DNA of 64,000 nucleotides from a virus, in IMG/VR virus record IMGVR_UViG_3300028802_000007, positions 32,001 through 96,000 of that record; one strand, given 5' to 3'. Under the pieces are notes generated by a model. The model had not been told where the DNA came from. It worked only from the letters and a program-made list of their open reading frames with translations, and ran no database searches. Positions 31,501 to 62,307 of this stretch are shown one piece after another. The position numbers and the translations under genes were made by a program. Within the stretch, counting starts at the first letter, position 1; each line of letters opens with the position of its first letter.

Positions 31501-34500
31501 ACCGGCGTTGTAGTACTTGCCGCTGTCGGTGGCACCGGACCGACTGAAGACGATCCAGTACTTCGTCCCACTGACCAGCGGGAGAGCGACGGTCGAAGTG
31601 GTGAGGACCGTGAGGGTCGTGGAGAGCTGGCCTGCGGCGACCGACGCGATGGAGCCGATGAGGGAACCCGGAGTCGAGCCCGCGCTCGACCAGAGCTCGA
31701 CCTCGACGGTGTCCGCCGGAGCTCCCGTCCTCGAGAGCATGTAGGAGACACGCCACAGGCTGCCGGTGGCACCTGCCGTGAAGGCCTGCGCCACCTTGGT
31801 GAAGTCGGAGATGTTCCCGAAGGCGATCGCGGTCGGGTCCAAGCTGAACGAGACCGCAGACAGCTCGTTGACCGACTGGGTCTTCTTCAGGATCGCGTTG
31901 GCCGTGAAGGTGCCGGTCCGGGTGATCTGGACCCAAGCGGCAGCGGTGTAGGAGCCAGCGATGGTCTTCTTGAGAACGGCATTGGCCGTGAACGTCCCGG
32001 TCAGCGTCGTCTTGATGACGGCGTTGGCGGTGAAGGTCCCGGTCCTGGTCGCCTTCAGGACCGCGTTCGCCGTGAACGTCCCGGTGACCGTTCGGACGAG
32101 CGCGGCGTTGGCCGTGAAGGTCCCGGTGCGGGTGCTCTTGATGACCGCGTTGACCGTGATGGGCAGCGTCGCCTTCAGGTTGAACGTCGCGTTGATGACA
32201 TCCCAACTGGAGGTCGGAGCGATCGTCCACGTCGGCGAGTACGTCCCGGGCTTGGTAGCGAAGAGGTACGCCGCCTGCAACTGGTAGGTCGCGGTGCTGA
32301 CACCCGTCAGGTTGGTGAACCCGTTGCCAGCGGCGCTGACGACAGACGAACTCAGGAGGTCCATGCCTCCCAGGAAGAGGCGGGGACCGTCTACCGTGAT
32401 CCCACCGACGGTGACAGGCGAGATGCTCTGGCCGTTCTTGGTGGTGACGCCCGTCGGGCTATCGACGCCGCTCCACTCGGAGACGTTGACCGCCTTCTGG
32501 CCGCCGTTGTCGAAGGTGACGGTGACGGTGGTCTGGCCGCCGGACGAGTAGAAGCCCGCGCTGACGACGAGGCCCCAGGCGTTGCCTCGGTTATCGACTT
32601 CAGCCCAGTTGACGCCGCCGCCAGAGGGGATGCCCCTGACCGCGACGACGCTTGGATCGGTCCACCACGCGATGAGCGCGTTGCCAGCGGTGACCGCCGA
32701 CAACGTGACCACCACCGTGAGACCCGTGCCGGTGTTGGTCGCCTGCTGGACGAGGACCGCGTTCTGGAAGCCCTGCGTCTTCAGGGCGATCGCGTTGGCG
32801 GTGTAGGTCCCTGTTCGGGTTGACTTGATGACCGCGTTCGCCGTGAAGGACGAGGAGATAGTGGCCTTCAGGACCGCGCTGGCCGTATAGGACCCGGGCT
32901 GGTCGGGGTCCTTGACGATGGCGTTGGCCGTGAAGCTGCCCGTCTGCGTCCGCTTGATGACCGCGTTCCCGGTGAAGGTCCGCGTCTCGATGTCCTTGAC
33001 GATCGCGTTGACTGTGATCGGAGCGATAGCCGAGGCCGCCTGATAGTGGGCGGTGATCTGGGCCTGGGTCAGGACGACGTTCTTGTAGAGCGCGAGTTCG
33101 TCGAGCGAGCCCTTGAACTCCTCACCGACGGAGCCACCGTCCCAGCCGACCTTGAGCGTCTCGGTGTTGTCCGCCATCGTCAGGTTGGTGACGGTGCCGG
33201 TGATGTCTACGGTGTCGAGGTAGATCTTGTTGGCGGCACCGTTCTTGGTGACGACGAGGTGGTGCCACGAGGTCGTGTCGGTCAGAGCCACCGACGAGAG
33301 GGCCGACGTGCCGACGCTGCCCTTGCCGAAGTCAACGATGTTGGAGGTGTTGATCTGGATGTTGTAGGCGTTGGTGCCAGCGTTCAGGACCGTCTGGAAG
33401 GTGCTGATCGTGCTGCGCTTGTACCAAAGCTCGATCGAGAAGACGTCGCCGAGATCCTTGCCAGACCCGTCTGGGAACTCGGCGTACTTGCCGGTCGATC
33501 CGGGCGTGAACGCCTTGTTGGTGTCGGCTGGAAGAGCTCCTGTGACACCCAACGTCGGACTGCCGATGTAGGTGCCGTTGAGGGAGGCGACCTCCTCTGC
33601 GGCGACGGTGCCGGAGGCCTCGCCGAAGCGGGCGTAGAAGCTCGCACCATCGCTGCGGACAAGCGAGTAGTAGGAGAGTTGGGTCCGCTTGATGACCGCA
33701 TTGGCGGTGAACGTGCCAGTCCTGGTGGACTTGAGGACCGCGTTCGCGGTGAAGGTGCCAGCGCCGCCAGCTTGGACGACGAACGTCCGGGCGATCCAGT
33801 GGGTGCGGACCTGGTCGGGAGTCAGGACCAGCGGGTACAGCGCGATCTCATCGAGCTTGCCCCCGACGTAGCGGTCAGGGGCCGGCGTGCGGGCGATGGT
33901 CAGGGGGTTCGCGTTGGTCGCGTTGCCCGTGTAATCAATCGACGGGCCATCGACGGTCACGTCCACGCCGTCGATCCAGATCTTGGTGTTGCCGTGCCCA
34001 GTGCTGTTGCGAGTGATGACGCAGTGGTAGGCGTTGACGGTTCCGAGCGTGATGCTCGACAGGGCAAGCTGCTGCGGCGAGTTGTAGGTCTCGAGGTTCA
34101 GGTTGTTGTTGCCGAGATGGGCCTCGAAGTGGGTCGTCTTGTTGAGGATCGAGCCCCCGGCGGTGAGGTTGCTGCGCTTGATCCAGAACTCGAGCGAATA
34201 CGGGCCGTCGTTGCCCATGGCCGACAAGGTGTCGCCAGCAGTCGCGATGCTTTGCGAGGAACCGTTGAAGGTGACGGACGTGTTGGTATCACCGGGCAGC
34301 AGGCTCGTCGCACCCAGCGTCGGGCTGCCGCCGTACGTCCCGTCGAGGGTCCCGACCTGGTCGTCGGCAGTGGTGCCCGCCGTCTCGCCCACGCGCCAGT
34401 AGTGGAACGCTCCGTCGGCGACGACCTTCTGGGTGTACGACTGGGTCGGGTTGACCCGGGTGATGTAGTGGTTCCGAACAGAGATCGGGCTCAGGACGTA

Positions 34501-35967: not shown

Positions 35968-36267
35968 TCAGGAGAGGGAGATGATGTCCTCGAGCCGGAC
36001 GCCCACCGCCGGATACATGGGGTCGTCGGTCACGATCTCCCAGTGCTCCGTGGTGTCCTTGCCGACGGCGATGCCCTCTTCGTCGTAGACGCGCTCGACC
36101 TGGTCGAAGCGTCGGAGGGTGCCGGTGACCTTGACGATGACCGGCTCACCGGCCTTGACCGGCTCCGGGTAGTCCTCGGTGTTGGTCTGGCTGACTCGCT
36201 CGTGGACCTCGGCGTAGACCCCATGCTGGAGCGAGAACGTGCCCTTGTCGCCGTCCTTGTACGCCAT
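35968..36267 (-). CDS. Hypothetical protein
   Basis: AGGAGGTCAACTGATG start context. Confidence 0.6.
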   Translation of the reverse strand: MAYKDGDKGTFSLQHGVYAEVHERVSQTNTEDYPEPVKAGEPVIVKVTGTLRRFDQVERVYDEEGIAVGKDTTEHWEIVTDDPMYPAVGVRLEDIISLS

Positions 36268-43850: not shown

Positions 43851-45209
43851 TCAGTCAGTGTTCCCCGTCAGGACGGGCTCGATGGCGTCAGCCTTTGATG
43901 TCGGCTTGCCCTCACCCGCAGCGGGCTGCTGGTCGATACCCGTGACTTCACGGGCGCTGGCGACCTCATCGATGGCGACCACACCAAGAGGCGTGTTCGC
44001 CATGAGGCGGTTGTAGGGGTTGTTGGGATCGATCGGATCTCCGAGCGGGAGACGGCCTTCGTCCAACCGCGCCTCGTTCACCGGCTTCCAAGGCATGCCT
44101 GCGAGCGCCAACTTGTTGATGTTGGCCTTTGACATGGACTCCTTGATATTGAGCCGGGTGAAGCGGAACGCCAGGTTGTTGGCCGACCCTCCAAAGCTCT
44201 TGTCCCACACGATCTCACGCGTGAAGTAGTCCTGGATGAGCGCGAGCAGGGGCCGGAGGCCCTGATCCTCGCTCATCTCCTGCTGGACTTCCCCGGTGGC
44301 ACGGTTCACGTCGAACGTGACACCGATGTCCTGAGGGCTGATGAGGTACACCGCGCAGATCTTCCGCACGAGGTACTTCAGCCATTCGTCGTACTGCATA
44401 TCGCGGTTCGACGGTCTGAATGGGATGAACTTCGCGCCCTTGGTGCCGCCCAGGAAGCCGAGTGCGCTGCGACCGGCGATTTCCGCCCGCCAGTAGGACT
44501 GGAAGGCCTCGACCTGGTCAGGCCGGGCTCCCTCGCCAAGATCGAACAGGCCGTCGGGAGCGGACTGCTCCACCTGACGGCGGTTGTACTGCGACCCTGT
44601 GACCTCTGCGTCGATGGTCATCTTGAGGGTCTCGAGCGGCGACAGGCCGAGCACCGAGTAGGTGCGCGGGTTCGCCATGATGTACATCATGTCGTCGTTC
44701 TTGAAGGCGATCTCCGTCTCCGGCACCGGCACCCACCAGTAGCGCGTCTCGCCGGGGCTGCCGTCCCACCGTGCGTTGACCTTGATGCGGGCCCCGTCCA
44801 CGGCGTGGAGGCCAGCAATCTGGCCGCCCAGGGTGCGTTCCTTCTCGATGACGCCTGCATCGAGCACGAGGATGTCCTCGATGATGGGCTCGACCCACGA
44901 GCGGAAGCTCTCGACCATCATGTTGGGCGAGATGAACCGGTCGCGGATCTCCGCCTTGAGCGACTCGCTGACGTCCTCTTGGCCGTCGAACGGGACGATG
45001 TCCCACTCGGCGGAAGAGACCTGTGCCTTGCGGATGCTGATGGCGGCCCGCACCCACTCTGAGTGCTCAGCCCAGTTGCGGAAGAGGGCGGACGTGGACT
45101 TCATGACCTTGCCGCGCTCTTGGAAGACGAAACCCCCGCCCGGCGAGGCAGGGATCGTCTTGGGGCTCGTCCTGTACGAGCGTGTGATGAGGTCGCTGAT
45201 GACGCCCAT
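43851..45209 (-). CDS. Portal protein (HK97 family)
   Basis: GLSPLE, DMQY.EW....RKICAVY.ISPQDIG, VNEARL; follows TerL. Confidence 0.92.
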   Translation of the reverse strand: MGVISDLITRSYRTSPKTIPASPGGGFVFQERGKVMKSTSALFRNWAEHSEWVRAAISIRKAQVSSAEWDIVPFDGQEDVSESLKAEIRDRFISPNMMVESFRSWVEPIIEDILVLDAGVIEKERTLGGQIAGLHAVDGARIKVNARWDGSPGETRYWWVPVPETEIAFKNDDMMYIMANPRTYSVLGLSPLETLKMTIDAEVTGSQYNRRQVEQSAPDGLFDLGEGARPDQVEAFQSYWRAEIAGRSALGFLGGTKGAKFIPFRPSNRDMQYDEWLKYLVRKICAVYLISPQDIGVTFDVNRATGEVQQEMSEDQGLRPLLALIQDYFTREIVWDKSFGGSANNLAFRFTRLNIKESMSKANINKLALAGMPWKPVNEARLDEGRLPLGDPIDPNNPYNRLMANTPLGVVAIDEVASAREVTGIDQQPAAGEGKPTSKADAIEPVLTGNTD

Positions 45210-45430
45210 TAGCCCAGCTTTCGGAAGTGCGCCGCGACGAAGTCCGCTCCAGCCTCGTTGAGGTGGTTGGCTTCCATCTGACGGTTCGCGGCGGTGATGG
45301 CCTCGTCGTATGTCATCGTGTGGGTCTCGATCTGGGCCATGATGTTGGCGAGGTACGCAGGCACGAGGCGCGTGCCGTCGCGGAACTCGACCTCGGTCTT
45401 CTGGCCCGGGAACACTAGGCCGTCTTCCAT
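45209..45430 (-). CDS. Hypothetical protein
   Basis: Lies between TerL and portal. Confidence 0.5.
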   Translation of the reverse strand: MEDGLVFPGQKTEVEFRDGTRLVPAYLANIMAQIETHTMTYDEAITAANRQMEANHLNEAGADFVAAHFRKLG

Positions 45431-46941
45431 GACACCTTCCCGGTCTTGTTCATGGAGCCGAAGAAGAAGCCCTCCGACGTGAGGTCCATCGAGTAGCCCA
45501 GAGCGTCCACGAAGTCGTCGTGGCCCTTGGGGAACGACAGGAGCTCCGTCTCGAAGGCCGATCCGCGCAGGCTGATGTGGTGCTTGACCTTGTGGGCCTC
45601 GTACTTGGCCGCCACCCCTCGAGCTCGCGTCGTCTTCTCTCCGTCGGCCTTGCGTCCCTCAATCGGGATGTGCGGGTACTCCTCCATCGTGTTGTGGATG
45701 ATGGTGCTCTGGGCCTGCACGCTCTCCACGATCACCAGCCCGATGTTGGGGAAGGCCCGCCAGCCGTCGAGGATGAACTCGACGTGGTGGCTCTCGCGCT
45801 TGTCGCGGTAGGCTGACAGGACGTAGAAGAAGCCCCTGTTCGGGCAGCCGGCCTGGCAGGCGTCCTCGGCGGTCGTCGCCCGGGCTGTGAAGTCGGCCCG
45901 CTCGCGGGCGCTGAAGGCGAGGTCCACGCCCATGCGGAGGTTGTAGGTATGACCCTCTGGGAGCGTCTCAAAGTGCTCGAATGGGCCCTTGAAGATGTTG
46001 CCCTCGAGAAGCCCCGAGATGTCGTTCTGGTACGCGCACGAGAACAGCGCCGAACCCATCTCCTCGCGTTCACGAAGGAGGCGCTCGACCGGCCAGTACT
46101 CGGGCCAGTAGGACTTGAGGTCCCCCTTCTCGTCGGGCTGAAGCGCCGATACCACATGGCTCTCCCAGCCGAAACCGCCCTGAGCCGTCGGTGTGAAGAA
46201 CTGCTCGTACAGGTCCGCTTCACCCCACCGCGTGCCGATGACGATGACCACCCCGTCAGGGGCTAGGCAGGGCTTGAGCGTCTTCTTGAACCAGGTCTCG
46301 ACCGCCTCTCGCTGATCCACGGTCTGGGTGTTCTCCTCATCGAGGATGTCGTCCATCAGGATGATGTCGAAACGCTTGCTGATGATGGCCCCGCCCACGC
46401 CGACGGCGAAGCACGAGACGTCCTTGCTGCCGTGCCACCGGGAGCCTGAGCGCAGCCACTCCTTGTCGGTCCACTTACTGGCGGAGGGCCCGCACTCGGG
46501 GAAGATGTCCTTGTGGGCCGCGTTGGCCTCGTAGGTGTACTTGATGGCCCGGCTGAAGTCCTTGCCCTGCATGTCGGTGTTGGACACGAGGCCGACCCGC
46601 AGATCGGGGTACTTGGCGACCAGCCACGCCAAGAGGATGGTGTTGTTCCACGTCGTCTTGGCACCGCCTCGCGGCAGCAGCCACACGCCGTGGCTGCGGG
46701 CGTAGATGGCCTCGAGCGTCTGGCTGACCATCGCCCGGTGGTGGGCCGCCGGGAGGTAGCCGAAGACGGCCTCGCCATAGGCGAAGACCGCGTCTGGTCC
46801 GTCAGTTCGTGCGAGTTCTCTCAACGCGTGGGAGCGGAGAGCGTGCCACGTCTCCGGGGTCAGCTCCGCGCCCTCGAGAAGCTTCGACAAGGGCTCTGAG
46901 GAACTCGGGATCGTTTCCGGTAGAGGAGAGGCTGATACCAA
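45415..46941 (-). CDS. terL: Terminase large subunit
   Basis: PRGGAKT Walker A, ILMDD Walker B, IGTRW, GVDLA, FPKGHDDFVDAL. Confidence 0.95.
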   Translation of the reverse strand: MVSASPLPETIPSSSEPLSKLLEGAELTPETWHALRSHALRELARTDGPDAVFAYGEAVFGYLPAAHHRAMVSQTLEAIYARSHGVWLLPRGGAKTTWNNTILLAWLVAKYPDLRVGLVSNTDMQGKDFSRAIKYTYEANAAHKDIFPECGPSASKWTDKEWLRSGSRWHGSKDVSCFAVGVGGAIISKRFDIILMDDILDEENTQTVDQREAVETWFKKTLKPCLAPDGVVIVIGTRWGEADLYEQFFTPTAQGGFGWESHVVSALQPDEKGDLKSYWPEYWPVERLLREREEMGSALFSCAYQNDISGLLEGNIFKGPFEHFETLPEGHTYNLRMGVDLAFSARERADFTARATTAEDACQAGCPNRGFFYVLSAYRDKRESHHVEFILDGWRAFPNIGLVIVESVQAQSTIIHNTMEEYPHIPIEGRKADGEKTTRARGVAAKYEAHKVKHHISLRGSAFETELLSFPKGHDDFVDALGYSMDLTSEGFFFGSMNKTGKVSWKTA

Positions 46942-47374
46942 GGTTTCGCTCCTCGGAGATGGTTGACGGCTTGCCGAAGAGGACCTGGAGACGGTCGATC
47001 AACTGCGCTACGTCTTGGGGTCGGATGACGACGAGCGGCTCTTCGACCCACTGGCCGTTGCGCTCGCGGGTGACGGTCCGCTTCATGTCGGAGCGCATCT
47101 TGCTGATGGCTTCATCGATGGCGTCGATGGCGTTGTCGCGGACCTTGACCTCTTTGGCGATCCGCCGGCCCTCGTCGTCAGCGAGGAGGGTCATGGCCTT
47201 TGACTGGGCGCGATCGCGGTAGTCCTCGCGCTTCTTGGCCCAGCCGCGCTTCTTGGACGCATCCATGATCATCGAGTGGGTGGACATGCCGTGGGAGTCC
47301 GCCAACTCGCGGAGGCTCATCTCACCCTGGATGTATTCGAGCTCGAGAGCGTCGTAGTCCCACTTTCGGTTCAA
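46802..47374 (-). CDS. terS: Terminase small subunit
   Basis: N-terminal HTH (EYIQGEMSLRELADSHGM...W); directly upstream of TerL. Confidence 0.75.
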   Translation of the reverse strand: MNRKWDYDALELEYIQGEMSLRELADSHGMSTHSMIMDASKKRGWAKKREDYRDRAQSKAMTLLADDEGRRIAKEVKVRDNAIDAIDEAISKMRSDMKRTVTRERNGQWVEEPLVVIRPQDVAQLIDRLQVLFGKPSTISEERNLGISLSSTGNDPEFLRALVEASRGRGADPGDVARSPLPRVERTRTN

Positions 47375-47706
47375 CGGATCTCCCTCGTCACCATGCCCGA
47401 CGAACCGGGGATGGAGACCACGACTTCAACGATGCGGGGGTGCTCGAGGAGGAGGCGCTCGCAGATCCACGCCGCGATGCCGTCCAGACGCTCAGAGCCG
47501 CCATAGAGCATGTCCGACAGGGTATGGAGGTGCAGCGTGCGGGTGGTCGAGTACAGGTCGTCGTACAGCGTCAGGCATGGCCCGGCTAGGTCTGCGACCT
47601 CATCGACGGTGACGGTGAAGGTGTGGCCGTGGAGGTGCGGCCCCTCGCGCTCCGTGTCCCGGTGGGTGGAGTCGAAGGTGACCGTGGCGCGGGCGGTGGT
47701 GATCAA
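47371..47706 (-). CDS. QueD/PTPS-like T-fold protein
   Basis: FDSTH...LHGHTFTVTV Zn-binding His triad; TTG start after GAGG; the catalytic Cys is not present. Confidence 0.75.
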   Translation of the reverse strand: MITTARATVTFDSTHRDTEREGPHLHGHTFTVTVDEVADLAGPCLTLYDDLYSTTRTLHLHTLSDMLYGGSERLDGIAAWICERLLLEHPRIVEVVVSIPGSSGMVTREIR

Positions 47707-47725
47707 GTTGCCCTCAGAACACACG

Positions 47726-47764
47726 AAAAAAGGGACGGGCCGACCATTGCTGATCGACCCGTCC
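47726..47764 (-). terminator. Intrinsic terminator
   Basis: GGACGGGTCGATCA-GCAA-TGGTCGGCCCGTCC followed by CTTTTTT; the GNRA loop and two G-U pairs work only on the minus strand. Confidence 0.85.
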
Positions 47765-47845
47765 ATTCGGGAACCGGAACTCGCTGCGACCTGTCTGCTG
47801 GAGGTCAACCAAAAGAGCAGGGGGCGCGAGTCGGTAAGACCCTAT
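47726..47845 (-). ncRNA. Candidate small RNA with anti-RBS loop (UGGUUGACCUCC)
   Basis: Intergenic long hairpin (ACCG/CGGT, ACTCGC/GCGAGT, CTGCT/AGCAG) followed by a terminator; the loop is complementary to the repeated GGAGGTCAACCA. Confidence 0.6.
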
Positions 47846-47888
47846 TCAGTTGTACCACGCGCACAGTACAGGGCGCGTGCTCTGTTTG

Positions 47889-48167
47889 CTAGGTGTCCCG
47901 GTCGTCTTCAGGGACGTTTGTGTCGATGAAGCGGTCGGTTTCGACGGAGTAGCGCCAGTCGATCGTGTACGCGGCAGGCGGCAGGAGGGTCACCGATCCG
48001 TCCGCCAAGACGACCACCGCCAAGAGTGTTTTGGCGGGTGGTCGCTTTTGACTATCGAACTGTTCGAGCGTGAAACCCAGAAGCATCCCGACCGGGTGGT
48101 CGGTTTCGACCGGATAGCGGTCGGGTCGGAGGGTCACCCGGAGCGGTTCATCGAAGAGAGCTGTCAC
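47889..48167 (-). CDS. Hypothetical protein
   Basis: GTGA-coupled ORF. Confidence 0.55.
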   Translation of the reverse strand: MTALFDEPLRVTLRPDRYPVETDHPVGMLLGFTLEQFDSQKRPPAKTLLAVVVLADGSVTLLPPAAYTIDWRYSVETDRFIDTNVPEDDRDT

Positions 48168-49062: not shown

Positions 49063-51232
49063 TTATCTATCTTCTGCTTGGAACTGTTCGATGCCGCCGA
49101 CTGGCGGCTCGTGCTTGTCGATGTGGGTGTGCTCCTCGAGCCGCTGCACGCGGCCCTCAAGGTCTGACGTGCGGCGATCTTCGTATTCGAGGGGGCCGAT
49201 CCCACCGCCCAAGACGATGGCCTCAGGAGTCGCGCCCGGGTTCTTGGCCCACCACTCCTTCCAGTACTGGCCGATGGCGTCGAGCTGAGCTGGCGTGATG
49301 TCCGGGCCAGCGTCGAGAACGTAGCGGTCGTCGGTCAGGCGGATGAGCTTCATCACCACCCCCGCGACGGCGCGAGGAACGCGTCGTCCTTCATCTGCCA
49401 AGAACCGGTCCCACTCATGGCGAAGGCTTCGGCGTGCTTTTTGCACAGGTCGAAGTGGAGATTGGCCCCCGGGGCGTGCGGCTCCGTCAAGACCATGAAG
49501 TGATGGATCTGGAAGATGGCAGCGTCAACACAGCCCTCGACATCGCACACGAGGCTCTCGAGCTTCACGACGCGATCACCTGGTCGATGCTCTTGGTCAC
49601 GCGCTCAAGGATGGGCAGCGGGTCGATGTCTGCCTGGAGCAGCCCGAAGCCATCGAGCAGGATGTCGGCCCGCACCGACGCCCTGACCTCCTCGAGGGCC
49701 TCGCGCCTGATCTCTTCCTTGGTCTGTCGCTTAGCCACGGTTGACCTCCTTGAGCGAGTTGCGGACCTGTTCGGCTAGACCGCCGGGCTTATTGTTCTCG
49801 GTGAAGTGCCAGGCATCGACGATCGCCGGGTCCGCCTGGACCACGAAGTCGTAGAACCGCTGGTACTCAGAAGGAGTCGCGTCATGCGCCGTCGGATCGC
49901 TCTTGCCATCGCTCTTGGTCTGTCCCTCCTCGCCGCCCTCGCTCCTGTTGTCGAGGCTGGCAAGGTCTTTGGCGGAAAGGTGTTCTAGGCCCCTCTCAAC
50001 GCGAAGCCGGTTCAGGGCGCGGGTGGCGGCGATGAATGCCGCCTCCGCATCCTCCAAGTCGCGGTAGTAGCTCACGACAGCACCTCCGTCTCCATCTCGT
50101 AGCCGCAGCGTCGGCAGGGCCACGCCAGCCACTCGTGGCTGTAGGTGTCGTCGTAGCTCTTGCCCGGACGCTCGCGGATGCTCGTCTGCTCGTGGTAGCG
50201 CGGCTCGCCGCCAATCTCAGTGCCGTACATCGTCCTGATGGCCTTGAAGGCGTTCGGCTGGCCGCACTTGGGACAATCAGCCGTCGGAGCCTCGATCACG
50301 ACAGCTCCCTGATGGCGGCCTCGATGACCGCGTCGATGTCGGTGCAGAGCACGGCGTCTTCGCCAGCGGCTGGTATCACCGACGCGTTCCGCAGATCGAC
50401 CTGGATGTCGCGCAACACGGCCATGACCACGTCGGGATAGGCCTCCTTGACGTAGTCCCGACGAACGCGCAGCTTCTCTGCCGCCGACGTCGGGCTCACG
50501 CGGGCACCCACAGCACTTCCGCCACGCGACGGCGCAGCCACTGGAGGTCGGTCTCGCGACCGGTGGACTCCTCCTTCTCGCGGACCTTGGTCGGGCCGAT
50601 GGCCTTGACCGATCCGTCGGGCTTGTGGAGGTACGACTGCTCGAGGGTGTAGCTCACGCCGCCACCCATGTCGAAGGTGTTGGTCGAGTTGATGATGTCG
50701 CCCGTGTAGGTCTGGGCGTTGCTGGTCACGACGTGCGAGCCCATGGCGCGATCGGGCATCAGCCACGAACGGTTGGCGTCACCGAAGGCGGTCACCTCGA
50801 TGGCCCGGCCCTCCATCGGCGTATGGAGTTGGGTGGCGAGCTCGTGCTCGAGTTCACGCCCGCTCAACTTGCTGTACTGGCGACGCTGTTCGGGCGTCAT
50901 GCCAACACCGTCCCCCTTCATACCGGCACCCAGCTCACTTCAGAGATGCGCCGCTTGAGCCATTGCATCTCGGTCTCGGGCCGCTCCTTCTTCACCTTGG
51001 CGGGTTTCGCCGGAGGGAAGTAGGGCGCGTCCATGAAGTAGGCGTCGCCGTATGAGGTCGGCCAGACGGTCACGGTGTTGCTGGCGGTGACGTAGCCGGT
51101 GGTGGTCGATGCGTTGGTGATGGTCCCCGTTTGGTAGATGGGCACGCCCAGGCTCCTCCGATACTCGTTGACGGTCATGTAGGTGCCCGGGACGAGGCGG
51201 TAGTCGTTCTCGTCCCGGTCACCCCATTCCAT
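49063..51232 (-). other. Run of translationally coupled small hypothetical genes (49063-49356, 49353-49568, 49565-49738, 49731-50075, 50072-50299, 50296-50499, 50496-50921, 50918-51232)
   Basis: Mostly GTGA/ATGA stop-start overlaps; several CxxC proteins. Confidence 0.6.
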
Positions 51233-51234
51233 CC

Positions 51235-51759
51235 CTAGACGGCGGTCTTGGACGACTTGGTGGTGGTCGTCCGGTCCGTGATCTGGCGATCGACGGTGAC
51301 CGTCGGGAGGCGCTCGAGGATCTGGCCCATCAGGTCCTTGAGGTAGCCGACCTCCTGATTGAAGCGGGCCTCGCGGAAGTCCATCTCCTTCTTGAACGCC
51401 TCGCGCTCCGTGGCGAGGTTCTCGGTCTTGACCTCGAGGACGGCCTCCTTGCGGGCCTGCTCGATACCGGCGAGGGCCTGCTCAGCCTCGAACTCCTGAC
51501 GCTTGCGCTCGAGGCCGACCATGTGGGTCACCTCGCGCTTCTCGCGTGCGTTCGTCTCGACGATCCGGTCCTTGTCGATGTTCAGCTTGGCGATCTGCTC
51601 GCGGAGGACGTTCGCCTCCGTGGTGAGCTCCGTCTCCTTGCCACGCGCCTTGAGCGTCGCCTCGAGCTTGGCGATCTGTGCCGTCAGGTCGAGGACGGTG
51701 TCGGTGAGCTGCGCCTCCAGCGCCTCGCGCTTACTCGGTGTGCGATCGAAGATGCCCAT
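51235..51759 (-). CDS. Coiled-coil protein
   Basis: GGAGGTCAACCATG start; E/K/R-rich heptads. Confidence 0.7.
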   Translation of the reverse strand: MGIFDRTPSKREALEAQLTDTVLDLTAQIAKLEATLKARGKETELTTEANVLREQIAKLNIDKDRIVETNAREKREVTHMVGLERKRQEFEAEQALAGIEQARKEAVLEVKTENLATEREAFKKEMDFREARFNQEVGYLKDLMGQILERLPTVTVDRQITDRTTTTKSSKTAV

Positions 51760-51813
51760 GGTTGACCTCCCTTTCGGATGAGTCTGCCGCGACCGGCGGC
51801 CCGGGTTCTTGCC

Positions 51814-53570: not shown

Positions 53571-53592
53571 GGGTTGACCTCCTTCTCGCCGT

Positions 53593-54105: not shown

Positions 54106-54135
54106 TTGACACCCCTGCCGTCCATCCCCGATACT
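54106..54135 (+). promoter_or_regulatory. Rightward sigma70-type promoter
   Basis: TTGACA-18 nt-GATACT. Confidence 0.6.
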
Positions 54136-54180
54136 GGTCGCAGACACCCCCTGTGCTGGGGTGACGCATGGAGGTCAACC

Positions 54181-54898
54181 ATGACTCACAAGGCCCGTGT
54201 TATCGCGGCGAGCAAGGCCCGTCGCTACCCACCCTGCGACGACTGCGGCAAGGTCGTCGCCCTTGAGGGTCACGCCTGTGACCTCAAGCCCCTCGCCCGA
54301 TGACCGCCATCCTCGACGCCATCGACCGCCTCCCGACCATGGTCTGGGCGCTGGTCGTCATGCTGTCGGCGTGGGCCATCATCGCCTTCGCCTTCGCCCT
54401 GATGGTCGGCACCTACCTCGCCATCGGCGAACTGGTCGCGGCATGACCACCTACAACGCAGCCTCCATCAACTGCGAGTGCGGACACCCGGGCATCGACG
54501 GCCACAACATGCGGCAGTCGCCCCCGGAGTGCCTGACCCCCGGCTGCATCTGCGGCCTGTACGGTGCCACCGCTGACGGCTCGTCCGTCCATCGCGTGGG
54601 CCGCTGGGTGGTCCGCATCGCCCCTGAGCCCGCCGACCTCTATCTGGGGACGGATCGGACTTGGACCCGCGAGCGGGCGACCTACGAGACGGGCACCATC
54701 GTTGAGGTCTACGACGCCAAGTACGTCGAGGGCTTCACCCCTCTGGGCCAGTTCGTCACCGCCTACGGTGCCCGGACCCTGACCGACTCAGCCGTCGGTC
54801 GTGGCACAGGGCTCATCCTCGACGGCGGTATCCCGGCATGGCGCATGAGCGCCGATGAGTTCACCACCGTCCTAGGGCTCATCGCCCGCTGGGGCTGA
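54181..54898 (+). other. Three small early genes (54181-54303, 54300-54446 TM, 54443-54898)
   Basis: GGAGGTCAACCATG start; ATGA overlaps. Confidence 0.6.
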
Positions 54899-54951
54899 CC
54901 CTCACGGGTGCCCCCCACTGGGAGGCACCAGCGAGCGCCAGACAGGCACTC
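54895..54951 (+). repeat. Structured intergenic element, copy 1
   Basis: CTGACCCTCACG-GGTGCC..GGCACC-AGCGAGCGCCAGACAGGCACTC. Confidence 0.95.
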
Positions 54952-54968
54952 AGGTAGCAGGAGGAAGC

Positions 54969-55562
54969 ATGAAGGTCTTGGTCGTCTGTGAGTACAGCGG
55001 GCGCGTCAGGGACGCGTTCAGGGCTGAGGGGCACGAGGCCATCTCGTGCGACCTCCTGCCCACTGAGGTCCCCGGGCCTCACATCATCGGGGACGCCCTT
55101 GAGGCGATCCGCGCTGAGAAGCCCGACCTCCTCATCGCCCACCCGCCCTGCACCTACCTCGCCAACTCAGGCGTCCGGTGGCTGTACGGCGGCAAGGGCA
55201 CCACCATCGACCCGGTCCGCTGGGCGCAGATGGTCGAGGGCGCGGCCTTCTTCAAGGCCCTCCTCAACGCCGACGTCCCGATGGTCGCGGTCGAGAACCC
55301 GGTGATGCACGGCTTCGCCCGGGACCTCATCGGCCAGCGGGCCAACCAGTTCATCCATCCGTGGCAGTTCGGCCACGGCGAGCAGAAGTCCACAGGGCTC
55401 TGGCTCCGTGGTCTGCCCCTCCTGACCCCGACCGACGTGGTCGAGGGCCGGGAGCAGCGGGTCTGGCGGATGGGTCCGTCGGCTGACCGCTGGAAGGAAC
55501 GCAGCCGCACGTTCAGCGGCATCGCGGCTGCCATGGCAGCCCAGTGGGGAGGTCAGCGATGA
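54969..55562 (+). CDS. Short C5-cytosine DNA methyltransferase-like protein
   Basis: VVCEYSG (atypical motif I), AHPPC (IV), VENP (VI). Confidence 0.75.
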   Translation: MKVLVVCEYSGRVRDAFRAEGHEAISCDLLPTEVPGPHIIGDALEAIRAEKPDLLIAHPPCTYLANSGVRWLYGGKGTTIDPVRWAQMVEGAAFFKALLNADVPMVAVENPVMHGFARDLIGQRANQFIHPWQFGHGEQKSTGLWLRGLPLLTPTDVVEGREQRVWRMGPSADRWKERSRTFSGIAAAMAAQWGGQR

Positions 55563-55828
55563 CTGAGGACATCAACGCCATCCGGGCGAGGAACGAGGCC
55601 AACCGCGAGGCCCACAGGGTCGCGGCGCTGGCACGGCAGGAGGCCTACCGGGCCTCCCCTGAGTACAGGGAGGCCAGGTTGGCGCGGATCAACTCTGGCC
55701 TGTGCGTCATCGATGACGACCAGTGCGTCACCCACGGGGTCCCCGGCGACTTCGGCCACTACCTCGACACCCGCCCCGCTGAGGACCGGGGCCACAACCC
55801 GGTCAGCGGCATCGCCTACAACGACTGA
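55559..55828 (+). CDS. Hypothetical protein
   Basis: GGAGGTCAGCGATG start; stop lies inside element 2. Confidence 0.6.
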   Translation: MTEDINAIRARNEANREAHRVAALARQEAYRASPEYREARLARINSGLCVIDDDQCVTHGVPGDFGHYLDTRPAEDRGHNPVSGIAYND

Positions 55829-55880
55829 CCCTCACGGGAGCCCTGACCTCAGGGCTCCAGCGAGCGCCAGACAGGCACTC
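55825..55880 (+). repeat. Structured intergenic element, copy 2
   Basis: Central stem GGAGCCCTGA/TCAGGGCTCC. Confidence 0.95.
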
Positions 55881-55895
55881 AAGAAGGAGAAGAGC

Positions 55896-56255
55896 ATGGC
55901 ACTCACCAAGTCCGATCTGGAACGGGCCATCGAGGACGAGCGCCGTCAGGGCACCGTCGGATACAACGAGGGCGATGGCCGCAGCCAGCGGCTCCGGGCC
56001 AAGGGCGCGACCATCGTGGTCCGCGAGGCCAACGCCAAGGGCTGGTCGTACGACGACCTCGTCCTCTGGGTGGACTCCAAGTACGGGCGCTGGTTCTGGG
56101 ACAGCCTGTACGGCTGCGACGACCCTGAGGGCGCGGCCCGGGCGGTCACCCTCGACTGGGTCGAGCCCGGGGAAGGCGACTACGTCTACGACCCGACTCC
56201 CTACACCGTGGCGGTCGCCCGCAGTGGTGAGTGGGGCTCGCAGCGACCTCGCTGA
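55896..56255 (+). CDS. Hypothetical protein
   Basis: AAGGAG RBS; stop lies inside element 3. Confidence 0.65.
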   Translation: MALTKSDLERAIEDERRQGTVGYNEGDGRSQRLRAKGATIVVREANAKGWSYDDLVLWVDSKYGRWFWDSLYGCDDPEGAARAVTLDWVEPGEGDYVYDPTPYTVAVARSGEWGSQRPR

Positions 56256-56309
56256 CCCTCACGGGAGGCCCACGAGCTTGGGCCTCCGGCGAGCGCCAGA
56301 TGGGCACTC
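56252..56309 (+). repeat. Structured intergenic element, copy 3
   Basis: Central stem GGAGGCCCA/TGGGCCTCC. Confidence 0.95.
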
Positions 56310-56323
56310 TAGAAGGAGAACAG

Positions 56324-56919
56324 ATGGACAGCCAGAACGGAGTCTCCGCTCTGATCCTGACGCCTCAGGACCGTCGCGACCTACAGGCCGCACTGGTCGA
56401 GGCCATCGACACCGCCGACACGACGGCGGACTACAACAGCCCTCAGGTCGCCCGCTGGGTGGCCCTCATCAACCTCATCGAGGAGGGCAACAAGTGAGCA
56501 CCGGAGCCGACTGCCAGTTCAAGGAGGTCACACCGGGCCGCTGGTCGTACGCCCTTCAGGAGTGGCCCTACGGCGACTCGAACGAGTACACCTCGTACGG
56601 ACCCTTCGCCTCGTTCGCGATCGCGCGGGACCACCTCGACCAGAACCACGCCAACCCGGGCGGCTGGATGACCACCATCCATCCGACAGGCCACGTCCAC
56701 GAGTGGACGACCGACCGTGGTGCCTACGTCCCGGCGGGCGTGGTGGTCACCATCCGCGTCGAGTCGCTGGGTCAGGACCCGACGCCTGAGGCCCTCCTGA
56801 AGTTGATCACCAAGAAAGGTGCCCTGACCACTGACCACCTCAGCATCAGGCCTGAGACGCGCTACGACATGAACGCCAAGGTCACGTCCTGCGAGTCCTG
56901 CAACCAGCAGAAGCCCTGA
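56324..56919 (+). other. Two hypothetical genes (56324-56497, 56494-56919)
   Basis: RBS; GTGA overlap; second stop lies inside element 4. Confidence 0.6.
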
Positions 56920-56972
56920 CCCTCACGGCTGGCCCCCACTGGGAGCCAGCAGCGAGTGCCAGATGGGTGCTC
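56916..56972 (+). repeat. Structured intergenic element, copy 4
   Basis: Central stem GCTGGC..GCCAGC; second stem GAGTGCC/GGTGCTC. Confidence 0.95.
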
Positions 56973-56991
56973 TAGCAACAGGAGGTCAACC

Positions 56992-57788
56992 ATGGCAAGC
57001 AAGTACCCCGACGTCGGGTCCTACAAGGCCTCGCCGGACAACCGCGACATCGCCCGTCGGGTCGAGTGCGACTTCGTCGCCAGCGGATCGGGCTCCTACT
57101 ACAGCCGCGCATGCTCCAACCTCGCGGCGTGGGTCAGGGTCTACCGCCACAAGGACGGCACGGTCACCACGACCAGCGACCTCCGGTGCCACCGCCACCG
57201 CGCCATCGATGAGCGCACCGCCACCAACCGCAAGTGGTCGAGCCAGTTCAACGCCGACGGCTCGTCCAACCTCATGTTCCCCCAGTTCGACCCGTTCGAC
57301 GGGATGGCTGCGGCCAAGCGTCTGATCCGCGAGGAACAGGCCAGGTTGCAGGAGGCCCGCCTCGCGGCCATCAGCGAGAAGGTCGCGGAGGCCGCCGCCT
57401 ACATCACAGCCCACATCGTCGGGCTGGACGAGGAGACGGTCGGCTCCCTCAACGCCATCCACGCCATGGCGACCCTTGGAACGCTGGTGGTCCGGTGACC
57501 GCCGAAGAGGTCAGGGCTCGCTACCTCATCAGCGAGGCAGCTTGGGCGACCATGCGGGCGGTGACGCTCGAGGTCCACGACGTCACAGGCGAGGTCGTGG
57601 CCCTCGCCGTCCGGGGCGTGCCCTCGTTCTCAGAGCCTCAGGGCGAGGACAGCGACGAGTTCTTCTACGACGTGGACTGGCTCCAGTGGTTCAAGTTCGC
57701 CTACCCCGGTCGGAGCATCGTCGGGTCGATGGCTCCCGTTGATCAGGACACGGAGGAGGCGTTCGTCTGGTTCATCGCTCTGGACTGA
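56992..57788 (+). other. Two hypothetical genes (56992-57498, 57495-57788)
   Basis: GGAGGTCAACCATG start; second stop lies inside element 5. Confidence 0.65.
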
Positions 57789-57839
57789 CCCTCACGGCTG
57801 GGGCTGACGGCCCCAGCAGCGAGTGCCAGATGGGCGCTT
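57785..57839 (+). repeat. Structured intergenic element, copy 5
   Basis: Central stem GCTGGGGC/GCCCCAGC. Confidence 0.95.
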
Positions 57840-57859
57840 GGGATCGCAGGAGGTCAACC

Positions 57860-58246
57860 ATGGACAAGGCACAGGTCAAGGTCATCCACGAAGAGGTCAG
57901 CGAGGCCATCAGGACCGTCTACGCCAAGCACGGCCTGACCATCACCAGCGACCGCGCCTCCTACGGCGAGGCGGAGTTCAACATCAGCGTCAAGGCCATC
58001 AGCACCAAGGCTGAGGATCAGGCCAAGACGTGGGCACAGTACGCACCGGTCTACGGCCTCCCCGTCGATGGCTTCGGTCAGTTGGTCACCATCAACCGCC
58101 AGCAGTACGTCATCACCGGGCTCGACCTGAACCGTCGAGGCTACGTCGTCCGGGTGAAGAACCTAGGCACCGGCAAGGTCAGCCTGTTCAAGGCCGATGC
58201 GATCCGGCGGGCACTCGCCCTCATCGACATCAGCAGCCCCGCCTGA
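57860..58246 (+). CDS. Hypothetical protein
   Basis: GGAGGTCAACCATG start; stop lies inside element 6. Confidence 0.7.
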   Translation: MDKAQVKVIHEEVSEAIRTVYAKHGLTITSDRASYGEAEFNISVKAISTKAEDQAKTWAQYAPVYGLPVDGFGQLVTINRQQYVITGLDLNRRGYVVRVKNLGTGKVSLFKADAIRRALALIDISSPA

Positions 58247-58299
58247 CCCTCACGGCTGAGGCCTCGCCGGCCTCAGCAGCGAGCGCCATGTCGGCACTC
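58243..58299 (+). repeat. Structured intergenic element, copy 6
   Basis: Central stem GCTGAGGCC/GGCCTCAGC. Confidence 0.95.
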
Positions 58300-58317
58300 A
58301 AGTACAGGAGGTCAACC

Positions 58318-59513
58318 ATGAGCCCCATCGAACTGGCAGAGCGTCTGGGCCAGAGCCCCGACCTCGACAACCGGGCAACAGGTGTCGCCATCATCGTGCG
58401 CGGCCTGTGCGACGACGACGGCGATCGCATGGGCTGGCCGATGACCGCAGCGGTCGTGGCCCGTGCGGCCAAGCACATCGGTGTCGAGCCCACAGCCGAG
58501 CTGGTGGAGGCGGTCCTCGAGCTCGCCCCGATCCTGCCCGACTTCTACCTCAACCGATGATGAACGACGTCAGCCTGGTCGGGCACTGCCCGGACTGCGA
58601 CTTCAACCTCGACGGCGGTGGCAACGAGGACTGCGAGACGTGCGCCGCAGAGCCCGCCTTTGTCACCGTGGTCGAGGCGGTGGACCGCGACATCGTCGTG
58701 GTCATCATCGCCTTCGACTCAGGCCGCGACCTCAAGGACAACCGCATCCTCAACTACCTCGTGGATCGGTGGCCGAACCACCGACCTCTGGCCGTCCAGA
58801 TGGACGGCTCCGTCATCACCGTGACCGACGCCGGGTTCGTCGCCATCCTCGACCTGAACATCGGAGGCTGACGTGCCTGACCGCGAGGAGCTCCCGGCTG
58901 GCCCGACCAACGCTGCCGCTGAGGTGTGGTACGAACTCCAGCGGCGCATCCAACAGCATCTACCTGTACCTGGGGTTGACACCCCGGCGGCCAAGCCTCA
59001 GACTCACGAGGTGAGGTCAACCGACGAACTCGAAGACGAGCCCGTGTGCGAGCACGTCCACGTCGAGAAGGACGACGACGGCGAGTTCGCCCGCCGGTTC
59101 TTCTGCCTCGACTGTCAGCAACAGGTCGTCCCGGGCGAGCCCGACGAAGACGGCGAGTCATTCTGGGAGGAGGTCAACTGATGCCCATCATCATCGACGG
59201 CAACGTCACGGTCAGCGTCAAGACCCTCAAGATGCACGAGGGTCACGCCATCAAGGTCCACACCATCGACGGTCGGACGGGCCTGTACTGCGTCGATGAC
59301 GGCATCATCGAGCAGGAGCCCAAGCCCTCCACCTCGCTGTGGTGCGGCTGCCCGGATCGGGCCGAACATGACGAGGGTGTCGCCCTCCAGACCCAGTTCC
59401 GCAAGCAGTACCGCATCCCCAAGTCGTCGTGCGTCGGCTGCTATCTGGGCGACGACGGACCGTCGATGCACTCCTGCTACATCCACGCAGAGAAGGATTG
59501 GCCCACAGCCTGA
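58318..59513 (+). other. Four small hypothetical genes (58318-58560, 58557-58871, 58873-59181, 59181-59513)
   Basis: RBSs and overlaps; several Cys/His motifs; last stop lies inside element 7. Confidence 0.6.
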
Positions 59514-59570
59514 CCCTCACCCCAGCCGCTGATTGACCCAGCGGCTGGAGCGAGCGCCAGATTGGCACTC
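59510..59570 (+). repeat. Structured intergenic element, copy 7
   Basis: Central stem CCAGCCGCTG/CAGCGGCTGG. Confidence 0.95.
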
Positions 59571-59588
59571 ATCAACAGGAGGTCAGCC

Positions 59589-60155
59589 ATGGCCGAAGCC
59601 ACCATCACCTACAAGGTGCCTCACTTCAAGGGCACAGCGGCACTCGACCGCTACGGCGACTACGACGGCAACGTCCTGCTCCAGGCACTGGTCAGCGGCG
59701 ACGGACCGGCGGTGGATCAGTTCCTCGCGGAACTCGCCATCAAGCAGAACGAGGAGTTCGACCGGACCGACGCCCGGTACGCCTATCAGGCCAAGGTCAT
59801 CGAGGCCATCGACCCAATCATCGCAGCGACCAGCCTCACGGGCTTCAAGGCCTACGCCAACACCGACCCCAAGACGCGCTACCGCCGACCGAAGATCACC
59901 AAGGAGGGCGAGGGCTGCCAAGCTGGCTACTGCGACCTCGCGGCCAAGTACCGGCTGCCCGATCCGCAGGAAGGCAACGACTGGGAGGCCTACACCCTCG
60001 CGTGCCAGAAGCACGCCATCAAGAGCATCAACAGCCGCGCTGACTTTGTGGCGAAGGGTGGGGTAGCGCCTCTCCGTCACGTCTACCTGACCAGCGACCA
60101 GCATCGCACCATCACTGATGCGATCCGCGAGGGCCTCAAGACCGTCAAGGCCTGA
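59589..60155 (+). CDS. Hypothetical protein with Cys/His cluster
   Basis: GGAGGTCAGCCATG start; stop lies inside element 8. Confidence 0.7.
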   Translation: MAEATITYKVPHFKGTAALDRYGDYDGNVLLQALVSGDGPAVDQFLAELAIKQNEEFDRTDARYAYQAKVIEAIDPIIAATSLTGFKAYANTDPKTRYRRPKITKEGEGCQAGYCDLAAKYRLPDPQEGNDWEAYTLACQKHAIKSINSRADFVAKGGVAPLRHVYLTSDQHRTITDAIREGLKTVKA

Positions 60156-60208
60156 CCCTCACGCCAGCCCCCGGGCCGGGGGCTGGAGCGAGCGCCAGAC
60201 TGGCACTC
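60152..60208 (+). repeat. Structured intergenic element, copy 8
   Basis: Central stem CCAGCCCCCG/CGGGGGCTGG. Confidence 0.95.
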
Positions 60209-61272: not shown

Positions 61273-61283
61273 GGAGGTCAACC

Positions 61284-62307
61284 ATGGCTATCACGATGCG
61301 CTCGTCTGATCGCGCTGAGGTCATCCGCGAGATGGCCCGGGAGCTCCTCGCGAAGGCGGACTTACTGGACGGCACCTCGCCGTGCGTCTGCGGACACCTC
61401 CGCCAGAACCACGATCCGGCGGGCTGGAACGAGGGCTGGTGCAGCGGTGCCCAGACCACGCGGCGACCCAAGAACCAGATCATCGCCGCCGACGGCGACT
61501 GCAAGTGCGAGGAGTTCGAGGCATGGTGAGAGAGCGAACACTGGCTGAGTACCGCGAAGCGATGGCCGCAGACAGCAACGCCTCGTTCTACGAGGAGCGC
61601 CGCCTCAACTTCCTGATCCTCGCCCTGCCTGACGGCCACCTTGGCACGGGGGAGATTGTCAGCGTCTCCTTCCGCGAGGGCATCGACTTCATCGATGAGG
61701 ACTGGCCTGAGTTCGGCAACTTCCTCATCTTGGAGACGGCATGAAGACCAACGGACCGAAACTCGTCGGTGACTGGCGTCGCCGTCGCGGCTCCAAGACC
61801 GACGCCCACCTGTTCGACGGATCGGGGCACCACCCGTTCGACCAGCGACCGATGTGCGGCAAGGCCATCCGCCACATGAGCACCGAACCGGCGACGCTCT
61901 GGACGGGCACGCCCATCAGCCGGTCAGGCTCGTTCTGGGCGCTGCCCTGCACGGAGTGCCTCGTTCAGGCCATCACCCGCCAGCGCAAGGAGGTCAACCA
62001 TGCCTGAGACACGACGCATCAAGGCCACCTACTACCCGGTGCGCCAAGCACACCCACGCCGGACCGACTGGGCCAGGGTCGCCCTGTTCATCGCTGGCGG
62101 CATCGTCGCCGCGATCGCGGTCTGGGCCTTCGTCGCCCTGTTCCTCGTGACGTTCTGATGTGCGGCAGGGAGGACGACCCGTCCATGACTGACGTCTGCA
62201 CCCGCTGCGGGCATCCCGCCACCGACCATGGCGGCGGCCCCGGCGAGGGCGAGTATCCCGATCTGCCGTGCGACTGCGGCTGCGACCGCTGGACGGAGGA
62301 GGGCTGA
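61284..62307 (+). other. Small hypothetical genes (61284-61529, 61523-61744, 61741-62007, 62000-62158 TM, 62185-62307)
   Basis: RBSs and overlaps; CxCxH motifs. Confidence 0.55.

Follow-up and report, generated by a model that had tools for sequence, protein, structure and literature searches.

Cluster K mycobacteriophages carry 13-bp start-associated sequences (SAS, GGGATAGGAGCCC) in front of 11-19 of their non-structural genes (Pope et al., 2011, PMC3203893). Where that paper discusses what binds the SAS, both RNA and protein are left open, and a single reverse copy is given for each of Anaya, Adephagia, Angelica, and CrimD. In the sections of PMC12699233 and PMC11373665 that deal with the SAS their role is still called unknown, and RNA-seq of Adephagia places a late transcription start between genes 92 and 93 (PMC11373665). 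The RNA-seq data of that study come from Adephagia and ZoeJ, early (30 min), late (210 min), and in lysogens. In the full-text literature that we searched, we found no proposal of an antisense partner for the SAS. Here we describe an arrangement of the same kind in a different virus. In a stretch of 64,000 nucleotides (positions 32,001 to 96,000 of IMG/VR virus record IMGVR_UViG_3300028802_000007; the whole stretch is called the window below), a minus-strand RNA element at 47725-47843 presents at the tip of a long hairpin the complement of a tag that contains the Shine-Dalgarno (SD) sequence of a group of putative early genes. From its sequence features we read the element as the leader of the late operon and, when terminated, as a small RNA (sRNA) that would pair in trans with early-gene ribosome sites, a reading that we hold to be somewhat more probable than its negation.

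Small RNAs with some of these properties are familiar from other systems. The c4 antisense RNA of phages P1 and P7 is a small, leader-derived phage RNA that pairs with a ribosome-binding region and blocks translation; our element would likewise be a small phage RNA from an operon leader, with its pairing predicted here, but c4 targets its own operon (icd/ant), whereas the tag of this phage is found on about a dozen dispersed genes, and the element has 0 matches in Rfam. In lambda, the short 6S RNA made from PR' ends at the strong terminator tR' upstream of the late genes, the expression of which needs read-through with Q. The element is similarly a short leader that ends in an intrinsic terminator directly upstream of late genes; to our knowledge the 6S RNA has no trans target, whereas the loop of the element has about a dozen perfect trans matches. 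Among 20 open reading frames (ORFs) scanned, no family match suggests a Q-like antiterminator, no Q-binding or pause element was identified, and no search aimed at Q was made. Finally, the C-rich-loop sRNAs (6C sRNA of Actinobacteria, RoxS/RsaE, RNAIII) pair a C/U-rich loop (CCUCC) with the G-rich SD sequences of several mRNAs with no obvious need for Hfq. The element also has a C/U-rich hairpin loop predicted to pair with several SD regions; those sRNAs, however, match the generic SD core only, whereas the element is phage-encoded, fused to the late operon and, because its loop also matches a 6-nt spacer, specific for the phage's own tagged genes. Judged by sequence, it would belong both to the antisense RNAs directed against ribosome-binding sites and to the SAS type of system.

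Structure of the minus-strand RNA element

The element lies in a 180-nt gap on the minus strand, between a 92-amino-acid (aa) ORF (stop at 47889) and a 111-aa ORF (TTG at 47706). Read on that strand, the hairpin is ACCG ACTCGC GCCCC CTGCT CTTTTGGTTGACCTCC AGCAG ACAGGTCGCA GCGAGT TC CGGT, exactly as quoted in an earlier, sequence-only reading of this DNA. Next come GGACGGGTCGATCA-GCAA-TGGTCGGCCCGTCC and six T. The candidate RNA of about 119 nt (47725-47843, minus strand) is composed of a short P0 helix (GGG/CCC), the long hairpin P1 (ACCG...CGGU, 47773-47835), a GAAU linker, a terminator hairpin, and a U tract, and is matched by our covariance model (see below) with 129.1 bits and E = 2.8e-24. 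The intrinsic terminator (47726-47764, minus strand) consists of a 14-bp stem with a GCAA loop (47764-47733), a C, and U6 (47731-47726). It was also found by a terminator scan, with 14 pairs, 9 of them G-C, a 4-nt loop, and the tail CTTTTTTCGT. The record holds a second, diverged copy of the genome (described below), in which the GNRA loop of the terminator is kept as GUGA.

The assignment of the RNA to the minus strand, made by the sequence-only reading from G-U pairs, the terminator loop, and the U tract, is clearly upheld. The minus strand folds with -87.6 kcal/mol (z = -4.31), a value that 0 of 200 shuffles attain, against z = -0.62 for the plus strand, where 51 of 200 shuffles are as good; the G-U pairs are conserved and the terminator is on the minus strand.

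At the tip of P1 lies the anti-tag 12-mer UGGUUGACCUCC (47800-47811, minus strand), which, as had been claimed, is the exact reverse complement of the tag GGAGGTCAACCA. The hairpin tip differs from the earlier description, in which 16 nt formed the loop. A GG and a CC close it, so that the supported loop is the open 7-nt UUGACCU (47808-47802, minus strand; unpaired probability 0.99-1.0) and five of the 12-mer's twelve bases are paired. Each of the 16 relatives that were folded has the apical stem YYGG/CCRR with its 7-nt open loop, the co-variation table shows the same tip, and the pair that flanks GG/CC is kept in 31 of 31 distinct sequences (U-A in 10, U-G in 19, C-G in 2). Opening costs 0.0 kcal/mol for the 7-nt loop and 6.2 kcal/mol for the 12-mer. 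The first bases of the loop, UUGA, fit YUNR, the U-turn motif of antisense loops. One idea considered was that the loop might mimic the 3' end of 16S rRNA.

A search of 1 kb against Rfam with E values up to 10 gave 0 matches at the element and only 2 outside it, at 48007-48066; ARAGORN finds 0 tRNA genes in the window.

The start tag and its predicted targets

Allowing one mismatch, GGAGGTCAACCA occurs 11 times in the window, where 0.43 occurrences are expected and 0 of 100 shuffles reach 11. Eight copies are exact, and seven of these end on the A of an ATG: one on the minus strand at 51759-51770 (ending at 51759), and six on the plus strand at 54170-54181, 56981-56992, 57849-57860, 58307-58318, 61273-61284, and 61989-62000. 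The eighth is the element itself, read on the plus strand (47800-47811). Copies with one mismatch lie at 49738-49749 and 53571-53582 on the minus strand and at 59578-59589 on the plus strand. The seven starts and two near-matches named by the sequence-only reading are thus recovered, and 59578 is added to them. Since the last A of the 12-mer is the A of ATG, the tag can be divided into the SD core GGAGG and a 6-nt spacer, TCAACC.

The earlier statement that the element is the only full copy away from a start codon is true of the window, while the whole record has one such copy per genome copy: 9 of 11 exact 12-mers adjoin ATG or GTG, and the other two belong to the element and to its counterpart in the second genome copy. 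These two reverse copies lie at 4854 and 79800 of the record, 74.9 kb apart. Using the shorter form GGAGGTCAACC with at most one mismatch, 22 starts were listed in the whole record; the tag is 0-3 nt before ATG or GTG, and contains the SD, in all of them. The tag is asymmetric, and every start-associated copy is sense to its own gene, on both arms.

For target prediction, which had been suggested as a check, we used a 17-nt loop probe, as full-length duplexfold gave meaningless long-range pairings. The probe is predicted to pair with tagged starts at about -22 to -27 kcal/mol, and with the early-arm tags of the window between 49738 and 62000 at -22.4 to -24.9 kcal/mol, against a median of -10.7 kcal/mol over 664 SD-preceded candidate starts. 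In this set 23 starts reach -21 kcal/mol or better, and 22 of these 23 best targets lie in the early arms; the remaining one is a near-tag, GGAGGTCAACTGATG, at window position 36267 (minus strand) in the late/structural region, before a 99-aa ORF. Opening of the target site costs 3.1-7.4 kcal/mol in the seven targets tested.

The tagged genes are small ORFs, and 10 that were scanned belong to no Pfam family and give one weak HicB-like PHROG match. They are arranged on two divergent arms that start at sigma-70-like promoters, and it is this layout of arms and promoters that suggests their “early” status. The rightward promoter, TTGACA-18-GATACT (54106-54135, plus strand), was found by scan with 10 of 12 matches and stands 35 nt before the first tagged gene; its mirror, TTGACA-17-GATGCT (about 53620-53592, minus strand), was read by eye before the first leftward tagged gene.

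Many tagged genes are also preceded by a unit of about 65 nt (roughly 55-65 nt) that starts at the upstream stop codon. It opens with TGACCCTCAC, continues with a G+C-rich hairpin that varies from unit to unit and with the 7-bp inverted repeat AGCGAGTGCC-AGAT-GGCACTC, and is separated from the tag by some 8 nt. Such units, which also read TGACCCTCAC-hairpin-AGCGAGTGCCAGATGGCACTCA, are seen at 54895-60208 of the window and at 12.4-19.1 kb of the genome; in position they resemble the extended start-associated sequences (ESAS) of Cluster K.

Conservation and co-variation in relatives

A TerL search gave 66 IMG/VR loci with 28-94% TerL identity, and a covariance model was built from four close copies of the leader. 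With this model a single full-length match was found in each of 43 sources, which comprise the window, the second genome copy, and 41 TerL loci out of the 66. Every match is located 1.0-1.15 kb upstream of TerL, in the orientation of that gene. Together they give 32 distinct leader sequences, in 28 of which the loop 11-mer GGUUGACCUCC is unchanged; relatives with 70-94% identity in TerL share it, while the sequence on either side differs. The loop is thus conserved, as the sequence-only reading had required.

Apart from the loop, the invariant blocks are the promoter-like GTGGTACAACTGCATAGGGTC, GGTTGACCTCC, and the terminator base CCCGAAYGGACGGGYCG/CGRCCCGTC. The arms of P1 vary freely among relatives yet stay paired. 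Over 31 distinct sequences, 90.7% of the cells that the model pairs are paired, compared with 76.3% in shuffles (0 of 500 reach the observed value) and 42-54% for slid partners, 26 of 42 pairs have changed on both sides, and the co-variation score is 0.401 against 0.175 in shuffles, although these pair counts lean towards the model because the alignment was fitted to its structure. For P1 (helices 2-4), both partners have changed in 18 of 22 pairs, with 85.6-87.2% of cells paired; for the terminator (helix 5), the values are 8 pairs and 94.8%. Many of the conserved pairs are G-U. The alignment is that of the covariance model, as MAFFT left the variable arms of distant members unaligned, and alifold then saw only the loop stem and the terminator. 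Independent folds of single sequences gave the same architecture in every case examined. On the evidence of the aligned sequences, the loop is under sequence selection and the stems are not.

The U tract is interrupted in several relatives, for example as UCUUUCUCGUU, which suggests leaky termination. If termination is leaky, a short RNA and a read-through mRNA that carries the hairpin would both exist.

Joint occurrence of tag and loop

Four related records have the complementary tag GGAGGTCAACC as their most frequent pre-start word, and GGAGGTCAA ranks first among the pre-start 9-mers of G000 (the source record), G001 (77 kb, complete), G002, and G003. G011 (68.6 kb, 96% complete) has the same terminator core and a leader hairpin with a different loop. 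In G011 a search for the tag gave 0 exact copies and 2 with one mismatch, against 3 for the reversed control, and no over-represented pre-start word that contains an SD was found. Both leader and tag are missing from G006 (52% complete). With a pattern built around the terminator core, more distant leaders were recovered (L125/L127, L128/L139, L132, and L130), with hairpin loops unrelated to the tag; one of them is the leader of G011. Locus L060 has a loop that differs but is still CU-rich (CUUCCUCCACCUCCUCC), and L042 is without the element altogether.

Since leaders exist that have the same terminator core and no anti-tag loop, we regard the anti-tag loop as an addition to an older leader. 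By this comparison of sequences, leader and terminator would be older and have a role of their own, with the anti-tag loop occurring where the tag occurs.

A variant loop, GGCCUGACCUCC, is found in L049, L050, and L053, on contigs of at most 16 kb that stop short of the rightward early arm. A metagenome scan for lineages with the variant loop yielded 4 contigs, again all of 16 kb or less. Scanning viral contigs with the variant-loop 17-mer gave 8 stretches, 5 of them new, and 0 of these 5 fit the model, as expected of chance matches; with a gapped promoter-terminator pattern, 29 stretches were obtained, and the single new contig among them is a chance match in coding sequence.

The loop has no evident partner close to it. 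In all 20 loci checked, GGAGGTCA does not occur within 1 kb downstream; AGGTCAA is missing from the 400 nt upstream in all 20 and turns up, at scattered places, in the 1 kb downstream of only 4 of them.

An anti-SAS hairpin in Cluster K

Cluster K1 phages, which have another tag, show a similar arrangement. Anaya has 16 forward copies of the SAS and 1 reverse copy (17 in total). When the transcribed strand is read, this reverse copy forms the apical loop, CCUCCUAUCC (10 nt), of a stable hairpin with a fold z of -4.69. The region around it is conserved in 137 Mycobacterium phage records. In Adephagia the anti-SAS loop is at 58684-58695, 195 nt before gene 93. On the strength of Anaya and Adephagia, a second, unrelated phage group with a different tag carries an anti-tag hairpin in the late leader. 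Keshu and SirPhilip have other sequences at the position of the loop, and subcluster K6 (Ekdilam, Amgine) looks discordant.

The non-coding region concerned lies before the last genes (39700-40010 of L097, which is 59699-60009 of the Anaya record, with homologues in L098-L105). It is built, in order, of a TTTTAGACT block, CGCAACAGCACAACTGTGCCCAAAAC, a co-varying hairpin, and the hairpin with the reverse-SAS loop, and is annotated as “none” or as a hypothetical protein, depending on the record.

The two systems are alike in several respects. In both, as the SAS are portrayed in the Cluster K papers' own sections on them, an asymmetric word with an SD core stands a few nucleotides before the starts of a subset of non-structural genes, in one orientation and mostly followed by ATG, and many of the tagged genes have an upstream inverted-repeat unit, here TGACCCTCAC-hairpin-AGCGAGTGCCAGATGGCACTCA. 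In both, a single reverse copy is not at a gene start and forms a hairpin loop in the late-leader region, and the tag is restricted to the early arms, here with 22 of the 23 best targets early and 1 (window 36267) late. They differ in the word itself (GGAGGTCAACC here, GGGATAGGAGCCC in Cluster K), in the phages, which are unrelated (the best TerL identity of ours to a cultured phage is 28%), and in that the reverse copy here is directly followed by an intrinsic terminator and the first late gene. As the words differ, the tag described here is part of the same kind of system as the SAS and not a member of it by sequence.

The promoter-like block

Upstream of the RNA lies a conserved promoter-like block (47838-47885, minus strand) with GTGGTACAACTGAATAGGGTC at 47858-47838. 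The block sequence GTGGTACAACTGCATAGGGTC occurs once per genome copy, with 2 matches in the 130,935-bp record at up to 4 mismatches, and is near-invariant in an alignment of 16 sequences; in relatives a TnGCnn-like word sits 17-18 nt upstream of TACAAC within it. A scan with the sigma-70 consensus finds no promoter at the block. A T7-like promoter for a phage polymerase, suggested by ACTCA/ATAGGG, was a passing idea. From the conservation we infer the promoter and, with it, a transcript whose start would presumably be at A/GGG near 47843.

In versions A and B of the genome only (see below), a perfect inverted repeat, CACGCGC-N10-GCGCGTG, is present at 47859-47885 (minus strand) and overlaps the presumed -35 region. 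It is identical in the two versions, loop included, and other relatives have TGTAGGCTTCG instead. The repeat could be an operator.

Genome and gene context

The source record is a 130,935-bp IMG/VR virus record with 65.6% G+C, of which the window is bases 32001-96000. Bases 1-56368 of the record are colinear with bases 75349-130935 at about 65-86% identity; the record thus looks like some 1.75 copies of a genome of about 75 kb in two diverged versions, A and B. Two related phages were probably joined in it during assembly, as a chimera or by concatenation, so that in the window the late genes (1 to about 43000) are those of version A, whereas the leader and the early arms come from version B. 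A relative with terminal repeats, G001, is complete at 77,074 bp. No DNA similarity to cultured phages was found, and TerL identity to any record of the phage collection is 28% at most.

On the minus strand the element is followed by the 111-aa ORF, TerS-like, TerL, a 73-aa ORF, and the portal gene. The 111-aa ORF, the first late gene (47371-47706), starts with TTG, has the SD GAGGG, and comes directly after the terminator; 17 nt separate the end of the U tract from its SD/TTG (about 8 nt in the second genome copy). TerS-like (46802-47374) matches phrog_1206 with 5.9e-10, TerL (45415-46941) phrog_38 with 1e-74, and the portal (43851-45209) PF04860 with 2.3e-30, all on the minus strand. The first late protein has only a sub-threshold PTPS/QueD-like match (PF01242, E = 0.08, 13.4 bits, cut-off 22.4). 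It is a small protein with an HxHGH motif. In a comparison that took in L042 and L060, its gene precedes TerS in several relatives, while others have an unrelated first gene at that place. A riboswitch for a QueD-like first gene, suspected from the HGHTF motif, was dropped, as the Pfam match is below threshold and Rfam gives none.

Discussion

Because the U tract lies directly before the SD of the first late gene, the late operon would have to be read through the terminator, and the element would thus be its leader. The sequence-only reading had seen an sRNA in this gap; a structured, terminated RNA is indeed encoded there, though as the terminated leader of the late operon and not as a free-standing gene. 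We propose that transcription from the conserved, non-consensus promoter-like block would yield an RNA of about 115 nt with a long hairpin, and that an at least partial stop at the strong intrinsic terminator before the first late gene would give both a short RNA and a read-through late mRNA with a shared 5' hairpin. The tip of the hairpin would present the 7-nt UUGACCU within the invariant GGUUGACCUCC, the exact complement of the SD-plus-spacer tag GGAGGUCAACC found on some 10-12 early genes per genome, on both early arms. The loop may kiss AGGUCAA in the tag through 7 bp and extend the pairing to 11-12 bp, and the resulting duplex would cover the SD together with its spacer and the initial base of the start codon. 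Ribosomes would then be excluded once the late leader accumulates, and the outcome would be an RNA-based shut-off of early protein synthesis. We infer the timing, the pairing in vivo, and the repressive sign of the effect from the layout and the complementarity. The early-to-late switch by a trans-acting sRNA that had been envisaged is partly supported: the conserved, strand-specific structure and the match to the tag hold, and the scan finds no sigma-70 promoter upstream.

Several observations weigh against this proposal. Five bases of the anti-tag are tied up within the RNA, the pair counts have the lean described above, and with no sigma-70 promoter at the block the RNA of the element could be part of a read-through early transcript. 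G005, with the variant loop on 16 kb, has no start motif that matches the full variant loop, the best being 10 contiguous nt at one gene. Tag and loop may owe their joint presence and absence to a single evolutionary event, and their co-occurrence is for this reason supportive, not decisive. Among nine sampled Cluster K phages only 5 keep the anti-SAS loop, and Ekdilam has 12 exact SAS copies together with a loop that matches the SD core only. The gap of 17 nt (about 8 nt in version A) between the U tract and the first late SD leaves no room for another promoter, distant relatives with hairpin loops that bear no relation to any tag retain the terminator base, and attenuation or antitermination alone would account for a leader. 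These last points, together with a terminator base (CCCGAAYGGACGGGYCG) that is conserved far beyond what termination needs, are what one would expect of a leader that acts purely in cis, by attenuation or processive antitermination, with a loop read by a protein or by RNA polymerase and no role in trans; lambda PR'-6S RNA-tR' with Q and the put RNA of HK022 would be its parallels. Such a leader, however, gives no reason why, in 28 of 32 distinct sequences, 11-12 nt of the loop should be complementary to the most frequent pre-start word, why G011 should have a different loop exactly where the tag is absent, or why Cluster K1 should have the same arrangement with another tag. No antiterminator turned up either, the 10 tagged early ORFs being without a Pfam family and having one weak PHROG match, and we think a role in cis alone unlikely.

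The same complementarity and accessibility, and the placement of the leader before the late operon, would equally suit control in the reverse direction, in which the tagged early mRNAs pair with the loop of the nascent leader, change termination, and license late transcription. When the 12-mer is constrained to be unpaired, however, the predicted fold keeps its terminator and basal helices, and no conserved alternative pairing was seen between the variable hairpin arms and the conserved terminator strands; the constrained fold thus gives no support to trans-antitermination by structural switching, and reverse control seems to us very doubtful. We are just as sceptical of a site that acts as DNA, in which GGAGGTCAACC would be bound in double-stranded form by a regulator and its inverted copy would be an operator at the late promoter or leader. 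Asymmetric sites of this sort are mentioned by Pope et al. (PMC3203893) in the stoperators of Cluster A mycobacteriophages, and the ESAS of Cluster K are discussed as promoters or DNA-binding sites in the relevant passages of PMC3203893 and PMC11373665; the tag, too, is asymmetric and on either arm always points in the direction of local transcription. Against a DNA site, the tag lies 0-3 nt from the start codon and contains the SD in 22 of 22 listed starts, and its inverted copy is at the tip of a hairpin with arms that co-vary with strand-specific G-U pairs, for which a DNA site has no need. Lastly, the motif on the plus strand reads as a normal tag that lacks a start codon, and the loop could be a functionless relic, for example of a decayed plus-strand gene start, kept by coincidence or hitch-hiking. 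We give this hardly any credence: at 70-94% TerL identity the 11-mer is invariant and the sequence around it is not, shuffled sequences fold as well as the plus strand, and the motif is found 11 times in the window where 0.43 are expected.

Pairing of the late leader with the early starts, which we prefer to these alternatives, leads to a broader and more tentative idea, for which we see a real possibility short of an even chance: that bar-coded ribosome-binding sites and one anti-bar-code hairpin in the late leader are a general and repeatedly evolved timing device of phages. Firing of the late promoter would make a leader that titrates the starts of the early regulon; in the phage family described here, the loop would have been grafted onto an older late-operon attenuator. 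The idea would also explain the SAS of Cluster K1 and their single reverse copy. It offers a testable partner for the SAS, whose function has been open since 2011 in the accounts given in PMC3203893, PMC11373665, and PMC12699233. Adephagia and Anaya are amenable to engineering and have Mycobacterium smegmatis as a laboratory host, so that a bench test is possible without culturing the metagenomic phage. Pairs of tag and anti-tag could aid annotation by marking early genes and the late promoter region, and could serve as orthogonal translation switches. Early-to-late switches of phages are known mainly as transcriptional, brought about by sigma factors, antiterminators, and repressors. If our reading is true, a single leader RNA would silence a dozen dispersed early genes through a private extension of the SD, and a post-transcriptional switch for a whole regulon would be encoded in about 115 nt.

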